From positions 7,492 to 71,491 of the IMG/VR virus record IMGVR_UViG_3300020236_000046: a DNA stretch of 64,000 nucleotides; one strand, given 5' to 3'. The DNA is from a virus (taxonomy: Duplodnaviria; Caudoviricetes). A program made the position numbers and the translations under genes. Below, piece after piece: positions 13,418 through 61,462 of this stretch (its first letter is position 1; each line of letters starts with the position of its first letter). Under the pieces are notes generated by a model. That model saw only the letters and a program-made list of their open reading frames with translations. It searched no databases and was not told the origin of the DNA.

Positions 13418-13993
13418 ATGGCAGATACACAGAGAACTAGAGCAGCATTGTTGGCTCTTATGGCTGATAACGTCACAGGTAATGTGTCGGCACAGGATTT
13501 CAGGGATTTTATAGTCACTGTAATGGATGCCGAATTTGTAAACCCCGGAGATTACTGGCGACAACCGATTCCAGATCAGGTTACAACGGATAAAACAGGC
13601 CGGGGTTGGATGGATTATAGTCAGGTAGCCGGTTCCGCTTTATCTTTTATGGATGCCTTGTACCTTGTAGCATCTAACGAATGGAGACGTGCGGACGTAG
13701 CGGATTCAACTACTATGCCTGTCATAGGGATAGCAATGGATTCGTATGCTTCAGATGCGACTAACTTACAGGTTCTTCGCGGAGGTATTATTTATGACAG
13801 TGCATTGTCGGCCAGATTTAGTGGGCAGATAGGAAGATTCGTATATCTGGCAAGTGGGGACGCAGGAAGTGTATCCGTGACATTGACAGCTAATAGTAAT
13901 CTTGTCTTGGGTGTAGTCGAACCGAATGGGATTGGTAGTGTAGTGTCAGGTAAATGGCGGTTTGACCCTGAATGGGCAGTTAAAGGCCAGTAA
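13418..13993 (+). CDS. Putative accessory virion fibre/decoration protein
   Basis: N-terminal 'RTRAALLALMADNVTGNVSAQDFRDF' helix motif and small beta domain 'WRRADVAD..PVIGIA'; sits in tail module; SD ggagg. Confidence 0.55.
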   Translation: MADTQRTRAALLALMADNVTGNVSAQDFRDFIVTVMDAEFVNPGDYWRQPIPDQVTTDKTGRGWMDYSQVAGSALSFMDALYLVASNEWRRADVADSTTMPVIGIAMDSYASDATNLQVLRGGIIYDSALSARFSGQIGRFVYLASGDAGSVSVTLTANSNLVLGVVEPNGIGSVVSGKWRFDPEWAVKGQ

Positions 13994-16180: not shown

Positions 16181-16302
16181 AAATGGGCAGGGACACAGTT
16201 ATTTGAGGTAGATAGGTTATGCCTCTCAAATATAGCTTAACTGTAGGCAGACGTAGAATGCTAAAGACCTTTAAGCTTATTCGCCTCTGTCCTTGCCCGT
16301 TT
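16181..16302 (+). other. Predicted long-range RNA stem with inner hairpin at convergent junction
   Basis: 16181-16198 pairs with 16285-16302 (17 of 18 pairs, including 2 G-U); inner stem 16200-16207/16225-16232. Confidence 0.4.
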
Positions 16303-18978
16303 TGCTCCTAATACGTCTCCTGTAGAGGCTAGGCACTCTGCTTTCTTATCTAAGACGGCATAGTCCATAGGCCATTTCTCTAGGTAGGTATCATAAGCAA
16401 GCAGAGCCTTTTCAGGATCGTTTGTACGCATATATATGCCGCCTACTGTAGGAAGGAAGGAATCATATTTTTCAGTTTGTTCAAAGACTATACTTAACTT
16501 CTTTAGTCCTTCATCGATCTTATTTTGCCGTATTAATAGCTGGCCTAGTTCAAATGGGTATCGAAGATTATCAGGAAAGTCCTTTATCAACGCTTCATAT
16601 ATCTTTACCGCATCATCAAGCTGATTAAGAAAGATCGAGGCACTCGCACATCCCCATCGCGCTTCTTCTCTATCGGGTAATAAATCGACGGCTTTTTCAA
16701 GGTATTCAAGAGCTTTTTCAAAATTCTTTTTTCTTCCGTATACTTGTCCTTTTTCTTGTAAGTGAAAATACATAGCCAATTTATCTTTTCCCTGCTTGAT
16801 GTCTTCATTGTGTTGAGTTATCGCTTTTTCTATTTCATCTTCACGCATTGCTATAGCCCTGTTTATTACAGCCGATGCTTTTTGACGTAATATATCACTT
16901 CTGCAATATTGGTCACTTAATATTCTTTTTGCTTCAAGATAGGGACGTGCAAAATTACCTGCATTGAAATATTCATCCGCATCATCTATATCAGGAGCGG
17001 TGTCTCCAATAGGTTCTAATATAGTCTGGTCTTTTGTCCTGTTGTAATTATCCAGTATTGAATGTGTGTTGATATATGTTTCCAATAAATCCGTGGATGC
17101 TTTTTTTGCGGCTTCAATGATAATCCGATTACGTTTAAGTCCGTTTGTCAATTCTGATATATTCTCATTTCGCATTAGTTTTTTAACGGGAAGTTTTCTT
17201 TTTTCAGTCGAACTTAACTCACGACCACCTATTCTTCTGACTGCTCCGTGAATCGCAATACCAACAGCGGGTATTTTTGATGATAATTCTCTGGTTTGTT
17301 TACTTAAATTATCATTTTCTATAATTCTTTGTTGAAGTAATTTAGCGTTTCCTTTTTTCATGGCCTGTTTTATTTTAGTATTTGCTATAAATGTTTCATT
17401 ACAGGAAATTTTTATCTGTTTAAGAATATCAATATCGTTTTCAAGTAAAGGAATTACATCTTCGATTAATTTATCCGCATCAGGAAGCAAGGAACATAAG
17501 TCACTTATTTCAGTCATACGTGCATTGTGAAGAGAGCGTATGCTGTCTTTTATATATTTATCTATTGCTTCCTGTAAAAAGATAGGTTCTGCTCCCCGGA
17601 TACAAGCACCGCCTTCAGTCGCATTTATGACTTTCCGACCGGAAAACTCTATCATGCTTTCCATGCTTGTAATAAATGCAGCTAACCCCACATTAGTATT
17701 TACAGGTGTTCCGTAATATCCCGGTACTTGTTGTTCCGGCCCCATACTATGTTTTTTAGATATATCCTTACTGTATAAACTGCATCGCGGATCGTCTACA
17801 CGCCATTGTAATATTCCGTTTTCATCTTTTTGTACATGTCCTCTTGCATCTACTTGTTTCATGTGACTGTCTTCTGTAAGAGCGAAATCTTGTCCTATCA
17901 TAATTATAGGATCGCCCCCAATATGTACTGCAAGTGAAAACGCCATGTGTGCGACGCTCCCACCTTGATTTAACGCCCCTTTATCTTTTAATATGCTATG
18001 TGTTTTTCCTTCAGAATCTTCACTGACCACAGCGGATATAAACTTCGGGCCTTTATAGGATTTCAATAAAGGTGCGTATGTGCGATTCAATGCGACAAGA
18101 GGAATACCACTATCAAGTAATCCTCGGTAATGCGCCATATTAACTTCGCCGAAATCCACGGTACATATAAAATCAGGTTGAATATCGTAGGCTAAAAGAG
18201 GACGTAATGCCTGACCTACCGCAACAATAATCGCACCATGATAAGCCTTACGCAGTAAATGTATATTACGTGAAAGAGACGGGCCAGTTGAAACCGTTAT
18301 AACGGGTTTCCCTTTGAACAAATCTTTTAGTTCATTCACGCCTCGATGCCGGATAATCCAGGGTAAAGTAGCTATATCGTTATCGGCTATCTTAGCTCCC
18401 GCATCCCCTGATATTGTTCCTATATTGCAACGAATCTGATTTAGTATTTCTGCGGTAAATAAAGTCAATTCATTATATTCTATAAGCTGTTTTGTGTAAT
18501 GCTCAATAACTACGAACCAATCCTCTACAATTTTTTGATTACTTATAGCTTCTAATACCCAAGCTATTTCAGCTTTGCCTGGGGCACAGATTATCAATTC
18601 CCTGTTTTTTATAGGCTTTGAAAAATCGTATCTTTTAAACGCGGTACGAACCATGTGGGCAATAGGTTCTATTACAATTAATTGATGCCCTTTTTCGGCT
18701 TTATTAAAAATATGATTAGTTGCATGGCCCTGTCCTATACCAATCAAAACACTTATATTGTGTTTGAGAGGTTTTACATAGTTAAGAACATCTTTTGAGT
18801 TTTCTATATGATCTTCCCCACTATACGCAGGAATCAATTTAGTTCCTATTGCTACATATAATTTATTTATAGAAGGACATTTAATCCACGTTACGTCAGG
18901 CGTATCAATTATCCATTTATGTAGTTCTGGATAGGCCTCTTCTATCGCTTTAAGATTTTTCTCATATACGTCATTCAT
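16261..18978 (-). CDS. maf: Maf-family (DUF115/MAF_flag10, MptE-like) glycosyltransferase with C-terminal TPR repeats
   Basis: 'FKGKPVITVSTGPSL', 'IQPDFICTVD', 'GGSVAHMAFSLA..IIMIGQDFA', 'VINATEGGACIRG'; TPR helices in the last ~170 aa. Confidence 0.88.
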   Translation of the reverse strand: MNDVYEKNLKAIEEAYPELHKWIIDTPDVTWIKCPSINKLYVAIGTKLIPAYSGEDHIENSKDVLNYVKPLKHNISVLIGIGQGHATNHIFNKAEKGHQLIVIEPIAHMVRTAFKRYDFSKPIKNRELIICAPGKAEIAWVLEAISNQKIVEDWFVVIEHYTKQLIEYNELTLFTAEILNQIRCNIGTISGDAGAKIADNDIATLPWIIRHRGVNELKDLFKGKPVITVSTGPSLSRNIHLLRKAYHGAIIVAVGQALRPLLAYDIQPDFICTVDFGEVNMAHYRGLLDSGIPLVALNRTYAPLLKSYKGPKFISAVVSEDSEGKTHSILKDKGALNQGGSVAHMAFSLAVHIGGDPIIMIGQDFALTEDSHMKQVDARGHVQKDENGILQWRVDDPRCSLYSKDISKKHSMGPEQQVPGYYGTPVNTNVGLAAFITSMESMIEFSGRKVINATEGGACIRGAEPIFLQEAIDKYIKDSIRSLHNARMTEISDLCSLLPDADKLIEDVIPLLENDIDILKQIKISCNETFIANTKIKQAMKKGNAKLLQQRIIENDNLSKQTRELSSKIPAVGIAIHGAVRRIGGRELSSTEKRKLPVKKLMRNENISELTNGLKRNRIIIEAAKKASTDLLETYINTHSILDNYNRTKDQTILEPIGDTAPDIDDADEYFNAGNFARPYLEAKRILSDQYCRSDILRQKASAVINRAIAMREDEIEKAITQHNEDIKQGKDKLAMYFHLQEKGQVYGRKKNFEKALEYLEKAVDLLPDREEARWGCASASIFLNQLDDAVKIYEALIKDFPDNLRYPFELGQLLIRQNKIDEGLKKLSIVFEQTEKYDSFLPTVGGIYMRTNDPEKALLAYDTYLEKWPMDYAVLDKKAECLASTGDVLGAKRARTEANKLKGL

Positions 18979-19556
18979 ATTTTAGTGCCTTCTTTAACAT
19001 GTGAATCATAAAAACCTTTTGACATTGCAAAAACACAAACATCTTCATAACGACCATTCAAAAATACACCTTTTTGGAATGCACCCTCATAGTTCATTTT
19101 TAACTTATTACAGATAATCTTCATTGCTGTATTAGTTTGCGCTGTCCCTGTCCATACTCGATTCATGTTAAGATGATCAAAAGCGTGACGTAGAACTACA
19201 TCACATGTTATCTTACCTATGCCTTTACCCCAATATTCTTTTTCACCAATAAGAATAGCAAATTCTGCACTTCTGTTAATCCAATTTATGGATTGCAGAG
19301 AAATATTACCTATATGAATACCTTTTTTATGGGTGTTAGGTAAAAGGGTAATAGCCCATACAAGTATTTTTTCAGCTTCAATATCCGTTAAAAATTGTTC
19401 TGTCCCTTTTTTACTATGTGGGAATACTCCATGTGAATTGTATCTTGTCACTTCGGCATCTTCAAACCATCTTTGATATCGTAGGGTGATATAAGTCTGA
19501 TTAAAAGGGGATAGAATAAGCAATGAACCATCAGGGAGTTCAATATTATATATCAT
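18975..19556 (-). CDS. GNAT N-acetyltransferase (PseH/RimJ-like)
   Basis: 'HIGNISLQSINWINRSAEFAILIGEKEYWGKGIG'; start at 19556 (SD ggagg, ATGA overlap with pseB). Confidence 0.85.
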   Translation of the reverse strand: MIYNIELPDGSLLILSPFNQTYITLRYQRWFEDAEVTRYNSHGVFPHSKKGTEQFLTDIEAEKILVWAITLLPNTHKKGIHIGNISLQSINWINRSAEFAILIGEKEYWGKGIGKITCDVVLRHAFDHLNMNRVWTGTAQTNTAMKIICNKLKMNYEGAFQKGVFLNGRYEDVCVFAMSKGFYDSHVKEGTKI

Positions 19557-20569
19557 CTTACTTCCTCCATCATTTCTACAAACTGTGTACCTGTCAGCCA
19601 TTGATCGTTAGTATCAGAATAATAGGCTTGTTTTAATCTATTTTCTTTTTGTAGGTATATCATATTAGGTTGGATTTGGTATCCCCCATTAAGATTAATA
19701 GTATAAGGCAATTCTTCTTGTGCGATTAGACATTCGTGGAGTTTTTCCCCTTTACGCATACCTATTTCTTTTATGTTCAAATGCTTTGCGGTTGTTTTAG
19801 CCATAGCCCATAATACCTGTATCATATCTGGAAGTTTCATAGAAGGTAGTTTAGGAATAAATATTTCCCCTCCTATCATTTCACAGCATCTGGCAAGGAT
19901 GAAGTCCGCTACCTGTGATTGAGTACTCCAGAAACGAGTCATTAATTTGTCCGTGATTGTCACAGCATTTCCTTTTTCTATCTGATCCTTAAATATATGT
20001 ACGACTGAACCTCTACTGCCTAATATATTACCATAACGGCAACAGGAAAATTGTGCGCCTTTACTGCCTGAATACACATTACCCTGTATAAACAGTTTTT
20101 CCGCCGCCATTTTTGTTGTGCCATAGAGATTAATTGGATAAACCGCTTTATCCGTGCTGATATTCATAACTTTTTGCACACCTGAATCCAAAGAGGCATT
20201 TAATATGTTTTCCGCTCCGTGTATATTTGTTTCTATCGCTTCTAAAGGATTATCTTCACATGTAGGCACTTGTTTCATAGCGGCAGTATGTATTACTAAA
20301 TCTACTCCTTCTGTTGCCCTTTTAACCCGTTGATAATCTCTTATGTCCCCTATTAAAAATGATACTGGGACATCTTTTAGATGAGTAGGATTAATATTGC
20401 CCAGTCTTTCTTTCATTTTTCTTTTTAGTTCCCATTGCTTCCATTCGTCCCGGCTGAATATTCTTATCCCTCTAGGTTTATGATGTAAAATTAATTGATG
20501 CAATAATTGTTGCCCCAAACTACCAGTCCCGCCAGTTAAAAGTATCTCTTTTCCATTTAACCAACTCAT
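19553..20569 (-). CDS. pseB: UDP-N-acetylglucosamine 4,6-dehydratase (inverting), PseB/FlaA1 family
   Basis: 'TGGTGSLG', 'IFSRDEWKQ', 'HTAAMKQVPTCE', 'STDKAVYPINLYGTTK', 'RYGNILGSRGSV', 'TRFW'. Confidence 0.93.
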   Translation of the reverse strand: MSWLNGKEILLTGGTGSLGQQLLHQLILHHKPRGIRIFSRDEWKQWELKRKMKERLGNINPTHLKDVPVSFLIGDIRDYQRVKRATEGVDLVIHTAAMKQVPTCEDNPLEAIETNIHGAENILNASLDSGVQKVMNISTDKAVYPINLYGTTKMAAEKLFIQGNVYSGSKGAQFSCCRYGNILGSRGSVVHIFKDQIEKGNAVTITDKLMTRFWSTQSQVADFILARCCEMIGGEIFIPKLPSMKLPDMIQVLWAMAKTTAKHLNIKEIGMRKGEKLHECLIAQEELPYTINLNGGYQIQPNMIYLQKENRLKQAYYSDTNDQWLTGTQFVEMMEEVR

Positions 20570-20585
20570 ATAGTCTCCTTTATTT

Positions 20586-20810
20586 TTAGTTACTTTTTAG
20601 TTTTATATATTTTTTGCCTATGCGAATTGTGTATTCCCCACATTTAAGTGCAAATTGTTCATCGGTTATTTTTATTTCATTTACGGATATAGCTCCTTGC
20701 TTGATAAGTCTTCTTACTTCGGAAGAACTTTTTACTGCACCACAGTCCGAAAGTATTGATGACAGAAACTCCGTCTCCTTCTTCCAGTCGTGCTCGCAGC
20801 TCCTTTTCAT
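20586..20810 (-). CDS. Stand-alone S4 RNA-binding domain protein (TyrRS C-terminal-like)
   Basis: 'GAVKSSSEVRRLIKQGAISVNEIKITD...GEYTIRIGKK'. Confidence 0.75.
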   Translation of the reverse strand: MKRSCEHDWKKETEFLSSILSDCGAVKSSSEVRRLIKQGAISVNEIKITDEQFALKCGEYTIRIGKKYIKLKSN

Positions 20811-20897
20811 TTATTATCTCCACCACTCCAAAGCGGATTATTGAAAACTGTTTTCGATTTCTTTTGACCCCATGTCAGGAAATTCAAATTTTTTCAT

Positions 20898-21761
20898 TTA
20901 TTTTTCAGTTAATATTGTTCTATATTGTTTTAACGGCCTTTGCCCGTCTATCGGGTCTGTACGCCACATATCTATATCTATTATATTATCTTTCAGGATT
21001 ATATGCGGATATGGAGGATCAGATGCATCAAGCCCTTCTCTAATGTCATAAATTACTTTTCCTATTTGTTTTGGTTTCCAGCAATGACCGAATTTATATT
21101 CATTCCCTTTTCCGTCTAAATCCAAATGAAATTCTATAGCCCGCGCACCTTCAGCTACGGCCCGATGCAGAACACCCGGTGAAACTGTATGATCCGACCA
21201 CCCAATTCTTATCCCGTATGTTTTTTTTAGTTCCCTTATCCTTTTCAATTTACAATCAACGGGTTTAGCCGGATAATGAGAATTACAATGGTATAAGGTG
21301 ATTGTGTCTATTCTAGGATGAAATGCAAGTAATGTTCGTATGGCTTTATCAGCTTCTTCTTCTGTGGCGTTACCTAGTGATAGAGAAACAGGTAATCCTG
21401 TAGAGGCACAATGTTTTATTAAATTCATCCATAATATTTCATAAGAACCTATTTTCAAACTATCGACGTAGGGACTTAAATGATCAACTGCGTTTAAAGA
21501 AAAGGGCGTACAATGAAATTTAATATTAAGCATTTTGCATACATTTGCTAAATTAGGCAACCAACTTAAAAACAGTTCGCTGTTTTTTAAGTCCTTTGCT
21601 TTTTCTGGATTTCGTATTGGGCTGTATAGGTGTTCAGCATTAAATAATTGGAATTTGACGGCAGTACAACCCATAACAGCCGCCGATTTTATTAATTTAA
21701 CCGCTCTGCTGTAATCCTGGTTATGATTTCCGCCAATATCAGCAATGAATTCAATTTTCAT
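20898..21761 (-). CDS. Nonulosonic acid synthase, NeuB/PseI/SpsE family (short form, no AFL/SAF domain)
   Basis: 'FIADIGGNHNQD', 'AVKFQLF', 'CTPFSLNAV', 'KIGSYE', 'IGWSDHT', 'AIEFH'. Confidence 0.9.
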   Translation of the reverse strand: MKIEFIADIGGNHNQDYSRAVKLIKSAAVMGCTAVKFQLFNAEHLYSPIRNPEKAKDLKNSELFLSWLPNLANVCKMLNIKFHCTPFSLNAVDHLSPYVDSLKIGSYEILWMNLIKHCASTGLPVSLSLGNATEEEADKAIRTLLAFHPRIDTITLYHCNSHYPAKPVDCKLKRIRELKKTYGIRIGWSDHTVSPGVLHRAVAEGARAIEFHLDLDGKGNEYKFGHCWKPKQIGKVIYDIREGLDASDPPYPHIILKDNIIDIDMWRTDPIDGQRPLKQYRTILTEK

Positions 21762-23014
21762 ATTAACTCTTTTCTATGGTCCCAAACTTTCCAAAACGCC
21801 TGGATTACATCATCAAGGCTTTGTTTATCTGCGTTAGGCCCAAATAGACGATGAATAATTATTAGTTCTTTTTTATACATTCTTTCACAGACAGGAGTAC
21901 TATCCCGCCATTTACTATCAGTAAATAAAGGCATCTGATTTATAGGTTTTGTATAACCATTACCTATCGGTACACCTTCCTGTTCCCTGTCTTTTACCGG
22001 CTGTAATTCTGCTTTGACCGCATTAACAAATGTATTACGTGAAATATTGTCTTCTATATTATAATATTTTATTGGTAGAACATAATAGGAATGGGTACAC
22101 TTATCTCGGATAATCGGCATAACAAGACACTCTATACCTTTTAATTCCTTTATAAGGTATTCTACATTTTTTAATCTGGCTTCCAGCAGGGCATCAAATT
22201 TCGTTAATTGCGCTATTGCAATCGCCGCCTGTATTTCAGTTAATCTTAAATTGAAACCAAACATTTTAGGAAATTCTAGTTCGACATGAAGAGTATCAAA
22301 CAAGGAATTATTTACCGCTTCGGCATGATTCCGCAAAAGACGGCATTTATCTGCTAATTCTGAATCATTTGTTAATATAATACCACCTTCACCACAGGTC
22401 ATATGCTTACCCTGATTAAGTGAAAACACTCCTATATCCCCTAACAGACCACAATAGGTATCTCCGTTTTTTGCTCCTACTGCTTGTGCGGCATCTTCTA
22501 TAACCCATATATTTTCACCTATTATATTTTTTAATTTTTTATAATTATAAGGCAATCCAAATAGGCTTACTGGTATTATTGCTTTTGTTTTATCTGTTAT
22601 TCTATCTTTTACAGAATAAGGATCAAGACAATAGTAATCTTCTTCTATATCCGCAAATACAGGAATTCCACCCCATGCCATAGGAGCGGTTGCGGAACAG
22701 GTCATAGAAAATGGGGTCACAATTACTTCATCCCCAGGTCGAATATCTACTGCACCACAAGCTATTATTAATCCACTTGTACAGGAATTAACAGCAATAG
22801 CATATTTTGCATTGAATTTTTTTGCCCATATTTTTTCTAGTGTTTGTACATATTCACCACCATTATGTCCTGCATGATCAGCTTGAAATCCTGTCAGAAT
22901 TCCAGTATCAAGCACTCTGTTTACCATGCTCTTTTCCATATTGCCTATAGTATTTTGTGATGGCAATAATTCAATTCGGACAGGTTTTCCTCCGTTTACA
23001 GCTAATACTGCCAT
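21758..23014 (-). CDS. PLP-dependent sugar aminotransferase (DegT/DnrJ/EryC1/StrS; PseC/SpsC-like)
   Basis: 'AVNSCTSGL', 'EDAAQAVGA', 'FSLNQGKHMTCGEGG', 'GFNLRLTEIQAA'. Confidence 0.93.
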   Translation of the reverse strand: MAVLAVNGGKPVRIELLPSQNTIGNMEKSMVNRVLDTGILTGFQADHAGHNGGEYVQTLEKIWAKKFNAKYAIAVNSCTSGLIIACGAVDIRPGDEVIVTPFSMTCSATAPMAWGGIPVFADIEEDYYCLDPYSVKDRITDKTKAIIPVSLFGLPYNYKKLKNIIGENIWVIEDAAQAVGAKNGDTYCGLLGDIGVFSLNQGKHMTCGEGGIILTNDSELADKCRLLRNHAEAVNNSLFDTLHVELEFPKMFGFNLRLTEIQAAIAIAQLTKFDALLEARLKNVEYLIKELKGIECLVMPIIRDKCTHSYYVLPIKYYNIEDNISRNTFVNAVKAELQPVKDREQEGVPIGNGYTKPINQMPLFTDSKWRDSTPVCERMYKKELIIIHRLFGPNADKQSLDDVIQAFWKVWDHRKELI

Positions 23015-23015
23015 A

Positions 23016-24038
23016 TTATAATCTTCCTCCTTCTATAAGTGGTAAGCCATGTATTGCCCGTCTAGCATTGAATGTTGGGTATCTATATTTCATATACAAC
23101 ATTATTTCGTTAATCATATAGTGAACATACACTGCATGTTCTGGTGTGCAGTGAGGCAAACTACGAGTACTATTTAAAATATCAACGGCGTTGTTGATTA
23201 CACGTGATAATCCAACAGTCAGGTCTGTTTTATTCCGCACACAAGTATTAGACAGATTAGGATAATACCCATAGGTATCTTCCATTACAATAGAATATAC
23301 ATCATTATATATCCCATGATGTGTAAGATTAATTCTTCCATTGCCAGTAAATATATCTATATCAAATATTGAATATTTATTAGCATCAATATTGATTAAT
23401 TCTACATTTTGACATTTTTCAAATCGTAGTTTTATAGAAGACAAATCCTGGGATACATAATCAACTTGAAGCATTTTTCCAAATAAATAATGAAACAGGT
23501 CTAACGCATGGCATCCTTCATGTTCCAGACTTTTTCCATATATTGCACGAGCATGATAAATCTCACTACTTGGAATTTTATCTAAATCATTTTTTATTTG
23601 TTGAATGGCATTAAGATACCGTCTTGTGTAATTGATCATTAATGGAATTCCTGCTTGTCTATATTTATCCATAATTTTTCTGGCTTCCTTTTCAGTGAGA
23701 CAAAAAGGTTTTTCAGCTATAACGAGTTTTGGTCGATATGATACTAGATGATGCAACACCTCATAATGATTTTCAGTAGGAACACAAACAGCCACAATAT
23801 CAGGTTTTTCTGTATTTATCATATACCGAAAGTCAATATATTTTTTACAGTTCCATTTTTCACCTGCTGATTCTACTCTTGATATGTTTATATCACAGAC
23901 AGCTACTAAATCAGTATCAGCACACCGACGATAGAAGGCATGAGCTATTGTAAGAGCATTACCTAATCCTATTCTATCGTATTGATCCGGTTTCAACGCC
24001 CCAATACTACCACAACCTATGACAACTGCTTTATACAC
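23016..24038 (-). CDS. Gfo/Idh/MocA family NAD-dependent oxidoreductase
   Basis: 'VIGCGSIG', 'VAVCVPTENH', 'AEKPFC', 'INYTRRY', 'CHALD'. Confidence 0.9.
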   Translation of the reverse strand: MYKAVVIGCGSIGALKPDQYDRIGLGNALTIAHAFYRRCADTDLVAVCDINISRVESAGEKWNCKKYIDFRYMINTEKPDIVAVCVPTENHYEVLHHLVSYRPKLVIAEKPFCLTEKEARKIMDKYRQAGIPLMINYTRRYLNAIQQIKNDLDKIPSSEIYHARAIYGKSLEHEGCHALDLFHYLFGKMLQVDYVSQDLSSIKLRFEKCQNVELINIDANKYSIFDIDIFTGNGRINLTHHGIYNDVYSIVMEDTYGYYPNLSNTCVRNKTDLTVGLSRVINNAVDILNSTRSLPHCTPEHAVYVHYMINEIMLYMKYRYPTFNARRAIHGLPLIEGGRL

Positions 24039-24812
24039 TTAAACCTTCTTTCTTTTAACCATTTCATTATATTTTAATATATCTGGATTGACTATTAAGA
24101 AATCTAGTATGTCTTCAACAGGGAATAATATATTTTCTTCTTTTACAAATTTTTCAAATAGGTATTTCAGCACTTTATAATCTCTAATTTCATCTAGTGT
24201 GAGACCCCATTCAGGATGCTTGTATTTATTCGGGGCTTCAACATTCAATACTCGATACCCTCCATCTTTTACAATGTTCCATCCTGCATGATCATGGTTT
24301 AATGTGTTGATATTGTCTAATGACCGTGTGTTTTTTCTCATTAAGTAATAAAGAGCTTTTAAAGTATAAACTTGTATATCTAATCCATCAGGCCAAGTGC
24401 GTTCTACAACATTAGAAATATAGTCAATATTATTTTTTCTGAATTCCTTAACAAGTTTATCTATATGGCGGGGATCGACTAATGGACAGTCTGCTGTAAT
24501 GTCTACTATTGTAGTTGCATCAAAAGACATAGCGGCTTCATATACCCGATTCAATACATCATGCTCACTTCCACGATATAATTTTATATTAGGATATACT
24601 CGCGCTATTCTATTTTTATAATTATCCACTATCAGCAAATCACTTTTTTTAACTGTTGTAGCTATAACAACTTCATCAATAGTCTCGGCGGCGGATACCC
24701 TGGCGACAACTATTTCCAGTACAGTCTTGTCTTTCCATAAAGGCAACAGAACTTTACCAGGTAATCTCTTACTATCTATTCTTGCTTGTATTATCGCTAC
24801 TGTTTTATTCAT
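24039..24812 (-). CDS. Acylneuraminate cytidylyltransferase, SpsF/PseF-type
   Basis: 'IIQARIDSKRLPGKVL', 'GSEHDVLNR', 'ITADCPLVDP', 'WPDGLDIQV', 'LTLDEIRD'. Confidence 0.9.
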   Translation of the reverse strand: MNKTVAIIQARIDSKRLPGKVLLPLWKDKTVLEIVVARVSAAETIDEVVIATTVKKSDLLIVDNYKNRIARVYPNIKLYRGSEHDVLNRVYEAAMSFDATTIVDITADCPLVDPRHIDKLVKEFRKNNIDYISNVVERTWPDGLDIQVYTLKALYYLMRKNTRSLDNINTLNHDHAGWNIVKDGGYRVLNVEAPNKYKHPEWGLTLDEIRDYKVLKYLFEKFVKEENILFPVEDILDFLIVNPDILKYNEMVKRKKV

Positions 24813-25012
24813 TTTCTTTTAATTTCTTTAAACGTAGTTACTACATTTGTATCCGCTAGTATAATCCTATCTATTATTTTTAGTGTTTCTTCTACTGGCG
24901 CATAAATAAGAGCGAGTTTAATTAATTCCATCCAATTTTTATTATTCCCCGCTCGAAGTGCTTGTATCTTATTCATAATCTTCCTTACTTTAATTGGGTC
25001 TAATTGAGACAT
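24809..25012 (-). CDS. Hypothetical protein
   Basis: ORF translationally coupled on both sides. Confidence 0.6.
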   Translation of the reverse strand: MSQLDPIKVRKIMNKIQALRAGNNKNWMELIKLALIYAPVEETLKIIDRIILADTNVVTTFKEIKRK

Positions 25013-60548: not shown

Positions 60549-60977
60549 ATGCCTGAATTCGGACATAAATCTTTAGAGCGCCTTTCAACGTGCGATCCGC
60601 CGTTGCAGTGGCTTTTCAATACTGTCATAGAGCGGTACGACTGCACGATCCTTGAGGGAGAACGCGGCCAGGAGAGACAAAACCTGTTTGTCGAACAAGG
60701 GCTGTCGAAAGTCAAGTGGCCGGACGGCAAGCATAACGTAAAGTCGGAGGATAAAAAAAAGGGAATCAAGAGTAAAGCGGTAGACGTTGCGCCGTGGATA
60801 AACGGCAAGGCATCGTTTGAACCGCGTCAATGTTACTTCTTTGCCGGATACGTCAAGCGCGTTGCCGAGGAGCTCGAAATAAAAATCAGGCTCGGCGCCG
60901 ATTGGGACAGTGATGGCGACGTTAACGACCAGACGTTCCGGGACATCGTTCATTTTGAATTAGCGGAGGAGCGGTAA
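60549..60977 (+). CDS. Endolysin, M15 family (L-Ala-D-Glu-type) peptidase
   Basis: 'GERGQERQ', 'KHN..SKAVDVAP', 'LGADWDSDG..DIVHFEL'. Confidence 0.9.
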   Translation: MPEFGHKSLERLSTCDPPLQWLFNTVIERYDCTILEGERGQERQNLFVEQGLSKVKWPDGKHNVKSEDKKKGIKSKAVDVAPWINGKASFEPRQCYFFAGYVKRVAEELEIKIRLGADWDSDGDVNDQTFRDIVHFELAEER

Positions 60978-61462
60978 TGAACTTGCGGGATATTCTTAAA
61001 AAGTTCGGCGGCCCGGTTGCGGCGTTATTGGCTCCCGCCACTGGCGGCCTGTCTATCGCGGCGGTCGAACTGGCAAAAAAGTTAACGGGGGCGGAAACGG
61101 AAAAAGAGGCCGCAAAAGTTTTTATCTCAAACCCGGAACTTATGGTGAAGTACAAGCTCGATTTGGAAACCATAGCGGTTGCAAAATTGGAAGCCGACGC
61201 GAAGGTAATAGAGAGCGTTGGCAAAACCCAGCGCATAGAAGCAGTGTCTGATGATAAATGGCAAAAACGTTGGCGGCCTACCGTTGGCTTCACCTTCGCC
61301 GCTGTAATTATAAACAACTATATTCTCATCCCCTGGGCGCAGGGACTGGGCCTTAACGTAATTCCGATTGAAATCCCGCCGAACGTATGGCTTGCGATGG
61401 GCGGCGTTTTGGGCGCGGCGGCCTGGACACGCGGCAGGGAAAAAGAGGCGCGGGTTAAATAA
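60977..61462 (+). CDS. Holin (3TM gene-transfer-release holin-like)
   Basis: 'KWQKRWRPTVGF', 'WLAMGGVLGAAAWTRGREK'. Confidence 0.8.
   Translation: MNLRDILKKFGGPVAALLAPATGGLSIAAVELAKKLTGAETEKEAAKVFISNPELMVKYKLDLETIAVAKLEADAKVIESVGKTQRIEAVSDDKWQKRWRPTVGFTFAAVIINNYILIPWAQGLGLNVIPIEIPPNVWLAMGGVLGAAAWTRGREKEARVK

Follow-up and report, generated by a model that had tools for sequence, protein, structure and literature searches.

A predicted pseudaminic-type sugar pathway and a Maf glycosyltransferase with C-terminal TPR repeats in an uncultured myovirus lineage: a putative system for glycosylating the phage particle

In the present study, we analyzed a stretch of 64,000 nucleotides (the window) from a tailed virus (Duplodnaviria; Caudoviricetes), which corresponds to bases 7492-71491 of the IMG/VR record IMGVR_UViG_3300020236_000046, and all coordinates given for this phage are positions in the window. 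The minus strand at 16261-25012 carries a module of nine tightly packed genes, one private insertion included, whose products resemble the enzymes of the pseudaminic acid pathway and end in a Maf-type protein glycosyltransferase with a C-terminal array of tetratricopeptide repeats (TPRs). We tentatively propose, with a confidence that falls a little short of even, that this uncultured myovirus lineage O-glycosylates its own particle, possibly on a tail-module protein referred to here as p191, using a TPR-guided Maf enzyme, and that an oxidoreductase of the Gfo/Idh/MocA family replaces the nucleotide-sugar hydrolase PseG in the supply of the sugar.

The virus record is 71,491 bp in length, has direct terminal repeats, with an exact 91-bp repeat at both genome ends, and was rated 100% complete by CheckV. 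A complete genome bounded by a terminal repeat and a synteny kept in 47 viral contigs show that the cluster is genuinely native phage DNA, neither a host flank nor a chimera. A preliminary description of this DNA had named eight co-oriented genes and argued that they did not look like flanking host DNA; all eight open reading frames (ORFs) lie on the minus strand where it placed them, every frame is intact, and the Pfam assignments agree with the families that it had given. The GC content of the cluster, 34-38%, is like that of the phage replication module. Most of the module genes abut or overlap by 1-4 nt, and the series is continuous with an upstream SbcC/Rad50-like gene, an arrangement as in a single operon to judge from the gene layout. 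One flank consists of Mu-like tail genes (sheath, tape measure, baseplate hub, Baseplate_J, gp48, and fibre), and the other of a lytic-type replication module that encodes SbcCD, ThyX, a dCTP-deaminase-like protein, RecA-like and gp32-like proteins, ligase, clamp, clamp loader, PolA, an intein-bearing helicase, primase, Mom, a C5 methyltransferase, and a phage sigma factor; the rest of the genome includes the head genes and the genes for a holin and an endolysin. No integrase was seen among the annotated genes of the genome, and the complete genome gave zero Flagellin_N matches at E values up to 1, in keeping with the earlier statement that the phage has no flagellum.

An assembly artefact, a host flagellar glycosylation island misjoined to a phage contig, or a passenger acquired recently and now decaying might also have produced such a cluster, and several homologs do lie in metagenome-assembled genomes (MAGs) labelled as bacteria or archaea. 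However, these labels cover unrelated phyla and the contigs concerned are short or phage-sized, the genome closes on its 91-bp repeat, the same synteny from replication to tail genes is found in dozens of independent assemblies, and the base composition is phage-like, with invariant motifs and all frames intact. We consider this explanation to be already refuted by the closure, synteny, composition, and intact motifs, and assign it next to no probability. The closest matches among cultured phages were approximately 40% identity of the sheath to Mu-like phages, approximately 24% of the polymerase to SPO1-like phages, and approximately 40% of the terminase to psiM2 and Gordonia phages; by these sequence comparisons, this is a phage without a close cultured relative.

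The module is widespread in metagenomes. Scans for the Maf locus with a single protein found no match in viral or genome contigs, and alignment-based scans worked. More than 120 protein clusters in a collection of 5.8 billion proteins contain full-length homologs of the Maf-TPR protein with identities of 35-46%, and most of these lie on contigs of 20-100 kb; the protein is also present on 47 viral contigs in IMG/VR. The gene order cytidylyltransferase, Gfo/Idh/MocA oxidoreductase, aminotransferase, NeuB, PseB, GNAT, and Maf-TPR was the same in six metagenome contexts, with small ORFs, an HNH endonuclease, or a thymidylate synthase interspersed, and the module faced Mu-like baseplate genes in every context that was long enough (4/6) and fibre and baseplate genes in most of the 47 viral relatives. 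When pathway genes were counted with family hidden Markov models in the 35 viral loci whose sequence extends 9 kb or more upstream of Maf, GNAT was present in 35, NeuB and DegT in 34 each, Gfo and PseB in 33 each, and the cytidylyltransferase in 30. The lineage was also sampled independently of Maf through p191, which identified 104 viral contigs, 31 of them with at least 8 kb downstream, and Maf was within 10 kb in 26 of these 31 genomes. About 100 or more related phages carry the module, which is a hallmark of a deeply diverged uncultured lineage. A core function is suggested by its share of the genome, approximately 12%, together with its retention across a lineage so diverged that Maf identity falls to 33%.

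Outside viral collections, a scan of 185,579 species genomes yielded only 11 Maf loci, all in MAGs of unrelated phyla, and some homolog contigs had been binned into MAGs labelled WWE3, Promethearchaeota, or Alphaproteobacteria; our reading is that most of these MAG-filed homologs are mis-binned phage contigs. Neither Megablast with the cluster nor tblastn with Maf found a match among 50,697 GenBank phages, a set in which the record analyzed here may itself be hidden, and NeuB had two weak matches there with less than 30% identity. BFVD also contains short MptE-like proteins from uncultured phages, which are uncharacterised. Two contigs of 56-60 kb in unclassified bacterial MAGs (L016 and L017) encode divergent Maf relatives of approximately 1000 aa, with 29-30% identity over the first 520-590 residues, and no pathway genes were detectable within 8 kb of them. 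In the relative L008, a thymidylate-synthase-family gene (L008:8977-9777) lies inside the cluster. Regarding the fibre of the present phage (14033-15265, plus strand), only the first 80-200 residues are conserved in relatives. The distal parts have been exchanged, L006 for instance having a 706-aa beta-helix/NosD tailspike in this place, and such exchange fits a lineage that infects varied hosts.

The transferase itself and its two parts are as follows.

16261-18978, minus strand: Maf-TPR protein, 905 aa; Pfam MptE-like domain (PF01973, formerly MAF_flag10/DUF115) plus TPR
17065-18978, minus strand: Maf body, residues 1-638, with an N-domain, the MptE-like catalytic domain, and a helical domain
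16264-16785, minus strand: C-terminal TPR array, residues 732-905, from Pfam TPR families (705-900) and the structural model

The MptE-like domain scored 145.3 bits at residues 209-369 (gathering score 34.6) and 148 bits when searched on the whole genome. The best solved match of an AlphaFold model built on 36 homologs (mean predicted local confidence, pLDDT, 89.5; predicted template-modelling score, pTM, 0.83) was the Maf of Magnetospirillum magneticum AMB-1 (5MU5; Foldseek E 3e-15), and VIA-align superposed residues 1-638 of the model on residues 8-644 of the chain with a Z-score of 25.4 and a root-mean-square deviation (rmsd) of 6.4 over 517 aligned residues. Cellular Mafs of 626-633 aa in the ESM Atlas cover residues 1-657 with TM-scores, by target, of 0.72-0.78. 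The whole body is thus shared with 5MU5, and the STGPS...QPDF motifs of the phage align with GSGPS...QPDF of 5MU5, with GPS at 231-233 and the Asp of PDF being D269; the two proteins differ in that their identity is 13-14% and 5MU5, a cellular and flagella-associated protein, has no TPR extension. T231, G232, P233, P268, and D269 are invariant in the 36 Maf homologs, as are D275, H283, H344, H372, and D377 across the family. The concern that the catalytic residues might be degenerate, which the preliminary description had named as a point to check, was therefore not borne out, since GPS and QPDF are invariant and aligned with those of 5MU5. Asp247 of Maf-1 from Shewanella oneidensis MR-1 is essential (Shewanella work; Unay, Kint & Viollier), and D269 may be the counterpart of this residue and of D261 in Maf-2. 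The NCBIfam PseD flagellin-modification model matched with 102.3 bits, against a cut-off of 670, over model positions 90-385 only.

The C-terminal residues 732-905 form five repeats in the model, which matched the TPR of MamA with a Z-score of 20 and an rmsd of 2.2 over 171 residues and also resemble the TPRs of O-GlcNAc transferase. The C-terminal TPR of Maf-1 binds the acceptor flagellin (bioRxiv 10.1101/2023.12.03.569772), and by analogy the phage array is presumed to be an acceptor-docking domain. Maf-1 and the phage protein are alike in having a MAF_flag10 body with a C-terminal TPR and the catalytic Asp motif, and in being encoded alongside donor-pathway genes, Maf-1 itself being cytoplasmic with a CMP-Pse-type donor; this likeness was judged by architecture, and the sequence similarity is remote. 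Maf-1 is a cellular protein of 822 aa from a flagellar locus with flagellin as its acceptor, whereas the phage protein has 905 aa and its genome no flagellin gene. On the strength of the model, the phage Maf is structurally complete and motif-intact, with a C-terminal TPR.

These structural data also bear on the idea that the target is something other than a protein, such as the bases of the phage DNA, a lipid carrier, or a capsule or lipopolysaccharide sugar, or that the MptE-like domain is a pyrophosphokinase. The cluster sits among genes for ThyX, a dCTP-deaminase-like protein, Mom, and a C5 methyltransferase, in one relative a gene of the thymidylate synthase family is found shortly upstream of Maf, and PF01973 includes the archaeal kinase MptE, which scored as well as 5MU5 in a single-sequence search. 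However, the superposition on Maf (Z 25.4) extends over the whole body of 638 residues and beyond the core domain, the TPR array resembles those of the protein O-glycosyltransferases OGT and SPINDLY and other protein-binding TPRs, and the strict co-inheritance with NeuB and the cytidylyltransferase fits a CMP-sugar donor. We accordingly regard a non-protein target or a kinase as improbable.

The canonical route to CMP-pseudaminic acid, known from Helicobacter and Campylobacter, proceeds through PseB, PseC, PseH, PseG, PseI, and PseF. The enzymes encoded upstream of Maf that may supply the sugar are listed below.

24039-24812, minus strand: cytidylyltransferase, 257 aa; Pfam CTP_transf_3, E 5.6e-24, residues 5-138
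23016-24038, minus strand: NAD-dependent sugar oxidoreductase of the Gfo/Idh/MocA family, 340 aa; Pfam GFO_IDH_MocA, E 1.9e-18
21758-23014, minus strand: pyridoxal phosphate-dependent sugar aminotransferase, 418 aa; Pfam DegT_DnrJ_EryC1, E 8.9e-76
20898-21761, minus strand: NeuB-family nonulosonate synthase, 287 aa; Pfam NeuB, E 2.1e-49
19553-20569, minus strand: PseB-like UDP-GlcNAc 4,6-dehydratase, 338 aa; Pfam Polysacc_synt_2, E 3.3e-90
18975-19601, minus strand: GNAT N-acetyltransferase, 208 aa; Pfam Acetyltransf_3, E 6e-20

The Pfam superfamily assignments of these enzymes are solid. In NCBIfam, PseB was by far the best match of the dehydratase (364.5 bits against a cut-off of 407.75; FnlA 226, LegB 58), the aminotransferase was PseC/LegC-like (PseC 192.6 bits, cut-off 423.5; LegC 169.5), and NeuB and PseI nearly tied for the synthase (148 and 136 bits, both below cut-off, that of PseI being 340). 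The GNAT reached 34 bits with PseH (cut-off 93) and is presumed from its sequence to perform a PseH-like step. The cytidylyltransferase is the presumed CMP-nonulosonate synthetase; it had been described as an SpsF/PseF-type enzyme, of which the CTP_transf_3 assignment holds, although NCBIfam contains no PseF match for it and its best matches there are KdsB-type and below cut-off. The synthase lacks a C-terminal SAF domain, and no SAF domain was found anywhere in the complete genome; its closest solved structure is the SAF-less synthase 6NCS (290 aa, E 9e-26), and the SAF-less form thus has a cellular precedent.

The phage operon is similar to the canonical pathway in combining PseB-, PseC-, PseH-, PseI-, and PseF-like steps, and it differs in the absence of PseG, in the extra Gfo/Idh/MocA enzyme and a mini-protein that we call orf67, and in the SAF-less NeuB. 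The proposal in the preliminary description that the phage carries a nonulosonic acid donor pathway holds for these five types of step in one operon, but PseG is absent, and since every enzyme scores below its equivalog cut-off, the product may be another 5,7-diamino nonulosonate. Gfo/Idh/MocA is a conserved, non-canonical member of the pathway and the one conserved enzyme without a role. Among solved structures, its best relative is DgpA (7xr9, E 2.4e-12, NAD domain only), a glycoside 3-oxidoreductase that readies a bond for elimination.

Two further small genes complete the series of nine.

24809-25012, minus strand: orf67, a 67-aa helical mini-protein with the core IRxxNNKxWMxLLRLAxxxAPEE
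20586-20810, minus strand: stand-alone S4 RNA-binding-domain protein, 74 aa; Pfam S4, E 4e-7

No Pfam or NCBIfam match, and hence no known family, was obtained for orf67. A tblastn search detected it in 19 of the 47 related viral loci, where its place in the cluster varies and is usually that between the GNAT and Maf genes, and R20, N23, N24, W27, M28, P39, I50, and D54 are invariant; this sequence conservation marks it as an accessory component of the module. Since orf67 is fused to the C terminus of the GNAT in one relative (L033:2669-3487), we prefer to view it as a predicted partner, probably, of the GNAT; residues 20-58 gave a weak structural alignment (TM 0.40) with a viral 232-aa GNAT cluster in the Atlas. 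GlfM, an 89-aa four-helix protein that binds Maf-2, was considered as an analogue because of its positional likeness, but the fusion inclined us toward the GNAT. The S4 gene, which had been counted as part of the system, lies between NeuB and PseB and is absent from all of the 47 related viral loci (0/47); in the relative L002, the gap between NeuB and PseB is just 18 nt. By this comparison, the S4 gene is a private 0.3-kb insertion outside the conserved module.

From the gene content, phage origin, and conservation of the module and from the fold and motifs of Maf, we infer the chemical steps, the nature of the sugar, and the acceptor along the following lines. The native and vertically inherited operon would make a CMP-activated, pseudaminic-type 5,7-diamino nonulosonic acid in the host cytoplasm during infection. 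The PseB-like dehydratase, the DegT aminotransferase, and the GNAT, probably helped by orf67, would turn UDP-GlcNAc into UDP-2,4-diacetamido-6-deoxyhexose, from which the nucleotide would be removed by a non-PseG enzyme; the best candidate is Gfo/Idh/MocA, acting by NAD-dependent 3-oxidation and elimination, and a host enzyme may alternatively perform this step. The SAF-less NeuB would then condense the free sugar with phosphoenolpyruvate, the cytidylyltransferase would activate the product with CTP, and the Maf body (1-638) would transfer the sugar to Ser/Thr of a specific acceptor held by the TPR array (732-905). The acceptor would most likely be a virion surface protein of the phage itself, which would give the progeny an acidic sugar coat. 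We regard this as the best explanation of the module; for the whole of it, a virion protein as the acceptor included, the chances for and against appear to us to be evenly balanced.

Several considerations favor a virion acceptor. Maf enzymes act in the cytoplasm (bioRxiv 10.1101/2022.03.25.485807), which is also the site of virion assembly, and the phage, itself devoid of a flagellin gene, brings an entire donor pathway. The module usually faces fibre and baseplate genes, and its share of the genome and its retention across the diverged lineage point the same way. In addition, the usual neighbour of Maf is a protein with the predicted fold of capsid decoration proteins.

13418-13993, plus strand: p191, conserved tail-module protein, 191 aa; predicted capsid decoration/cement-type fold

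The p191 gene is located between that for baseplate gp48 and the variable fibre, and its product is the most conserved distal tail protein, with a mean column identity of 57% over 25 relatives. An AlphaFold2 model (pLDDT 76.5) has a gpD-like fold behind two N-terminal helices, and the top 19 matches in VIA-align were all phage decoration or cement proteins (Z-scores: Adjutor 10.7, HFTV1 10.3, Patience 9.8, Pam3 9.7, and lambda gpD 5.0); the best Foldseek match, E 1.5e-3, was below threshold, and the fold assignment rests on VIA-align. Based on this model, p191 is a candidate acceptor of Maf, to be taken as a lead only. It is unusual for a tail module to encode a fold of the decoration type.

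Against a virion acceptor and a pseudaminic-type donor, a number of observations have to be weighed. The preliminary description had mentioned Ser/Thr-rich fibres, and no Ser/Thr-rich tract stood out among the virion proteins, the richest stretch, in the fibre, having 12 such residues in 30. The cluster is not always next to the tail genes, since three of the five exceptions in the p191 sample carry the cluster elsewhere on the same contig. Within the Maf family, identity is 33% in the TPR region and 57% in the catalytic domain. All Mafs characterised so far have flagellin as their substrate, and these enzymes are strictly specific for the cognate acceptor (PMC11339370). Concerning the sugar, every module enzyme scored below its NCBIfam equivalog cut-off, PseB coming nearest, and the complete genome contained no TIGR03590 (PseG) match at E values up to 1 and no Epimerase_2 match that would indicate NeuC/LegG. 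The donor pathway is thus incomplete by known enzymes because a PseG-type hydrolase is absent, and the missing nucleotide-sugar hydrolase is a real gap in it; sugar identity and pathway completeness are both uncertain, and the sugar is therefore referred to as Pse-like, the name pseudaminic acid being unproven.

The TPR array could still recognise a host protein, and the same pathway and Maf chemistry would then act on host flagellin, pilin, or another surface protein, for example, in order to block superinfection, to stop the trapping of progeny on debris, or to shut down motility. Besides the action of all studied Mafs on flagellin, their specificity for the cognate acceptor, and the binding of flagellin by the TPR of Maf-1, the closest cellular relative is relevant here. 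A Thermodesulfobacteriota MAG (L014:6867-10988) encodes a PseB-Maf-TPR pair in which the Maf, of 996 aa, is 35% identical to the phage protein over its full length, as similar in the TPR region as in the catalytic part, and the PseB directly upstream is 49% identical; an all-Thermodesulfobacteriota cluster is likewise a near neighbour in the Atlas. The L014 locus differs in its flanks, which consist of sugar-nucleotide genes, two cytidylyltransferases, GH57, and a full-length NeuB (349 aa), and neither phage genes around the pair nor a flagellar gene in 13 kb were found. In an unrooted Maf-TPR tree from a quick search, in which the row for L055 is a wrong ORF fragment, the split that sets L014 apart from the phage proteins has 99% support, and it is possible that L014 represents a cellular source or sink of the phage module. 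The conserved D0/D1 regions of flagellin could let one TPR type serve many hosts, and the position of the operon on the strand of the replication genes suggests that it is probably expressed before the late genes. However, the gene set is of the lytic type with no integrase seen, which leaves little time for modified flagellin or pilin to reach the surface, a whole donor pathway of 8.7 kb is a high price for exclusion, and a host whose flagella are glycosylated would provide the donor anyway. We consider a host acceptor to be unlikely, albeit the most serious competitor of the virion acceptor that we favor.

Precedents for the decoration of virions exist in other systems. Mycobacteriophages, as reportedly described by Freeman et al. 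in 2023, use phage glycosyltransferases to decorate their own capsid and tail proteins in the cytoplasm; these are said to be ordinary glycosyltransferases with host-derived hexose donors, with neither a nonulosonate pathway nor a Maf. The spike protein VP4 of HRPV-1 carries 5-N-formyl-legionaminic acid, which affects adsorption (PMC6137143), and is thus similar to the present proposal in that a nonulosonic acid is attached to a structural protein of a prokaryotic virus, whereas its glycan is N-linked and made wholly by the archaeal host, the virus encoding no part of the pathway (PMC6137143). In the flagellin glycosyltransferase FlmG of Caulobacterales, a TPR docks the acceptor and a separate domain transfers Pse or Leg in the cytoplasm (bioRxiv 10.1101/2022.03.25.485807); its TPR is N-terminal and its catalytic domain has a GT-B fold that is unrelated to Maf.

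Regarding other parts of the genome, a lysis cassette at 60549-61462 on the plus strand, between the terminase and head genes, encodes a 142-aa endolysin (phrog_465) and a PF11351 holin of the gene-transfer-agent type with three transmembrane segments; these lysis genes were considered as a clue to the host and were too weak to name one. The genome contains no tRNA genes. A Sigma70_r2 protein is encoded by the phage at 52470-52970 on the minus strand. In a scan of the region from 15 to 26 kb, the counts of consensus sigma-70 promoters and of terminators were at the chance level, and the phage therefore probably uses its own promoters.

To our knowledge, Maf enzymes and pseudaminic-type sugars have been known only as bacterial tools for flagella and cell surfaces, whereas the module described here is a conserved core toolkit of a phage lineage without flagellin. 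The literature searched yielded no description of a phage-encoded Maf or of a phage-encoded nonulosonate or pseudaminic pathway, as the preliminary description had supposed, and the genes are apparently catalogued in public databases but unstudied. Whichever protein is the target, the module, with the S4 insertion included, offers a compact nine-gene cassette for the engineering of cytoplasmic, sialylation-like protein modification, as well as a candidate for a new way to release a sugar from its nucleotide without PseG, and because the binding partner of the TPR array may be fished for directly, the choice of acceptor by a Maf becomes accessible to experiments. If the target is a host protein, the module would represent a novel way for a phage to take over the cell surface. 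If it is a virion protein, this would be, as far as we could find, the first case of a phage particle with a nonulosonate coat that the virus itself encodes, as well as the first of a Maf enzyme with an acceptor other than flagellin, and an acidic, sialic-acid-like coat of this type could affect the adsorption, stability, and aggregation of the particles and their recognition by hosts or animals.

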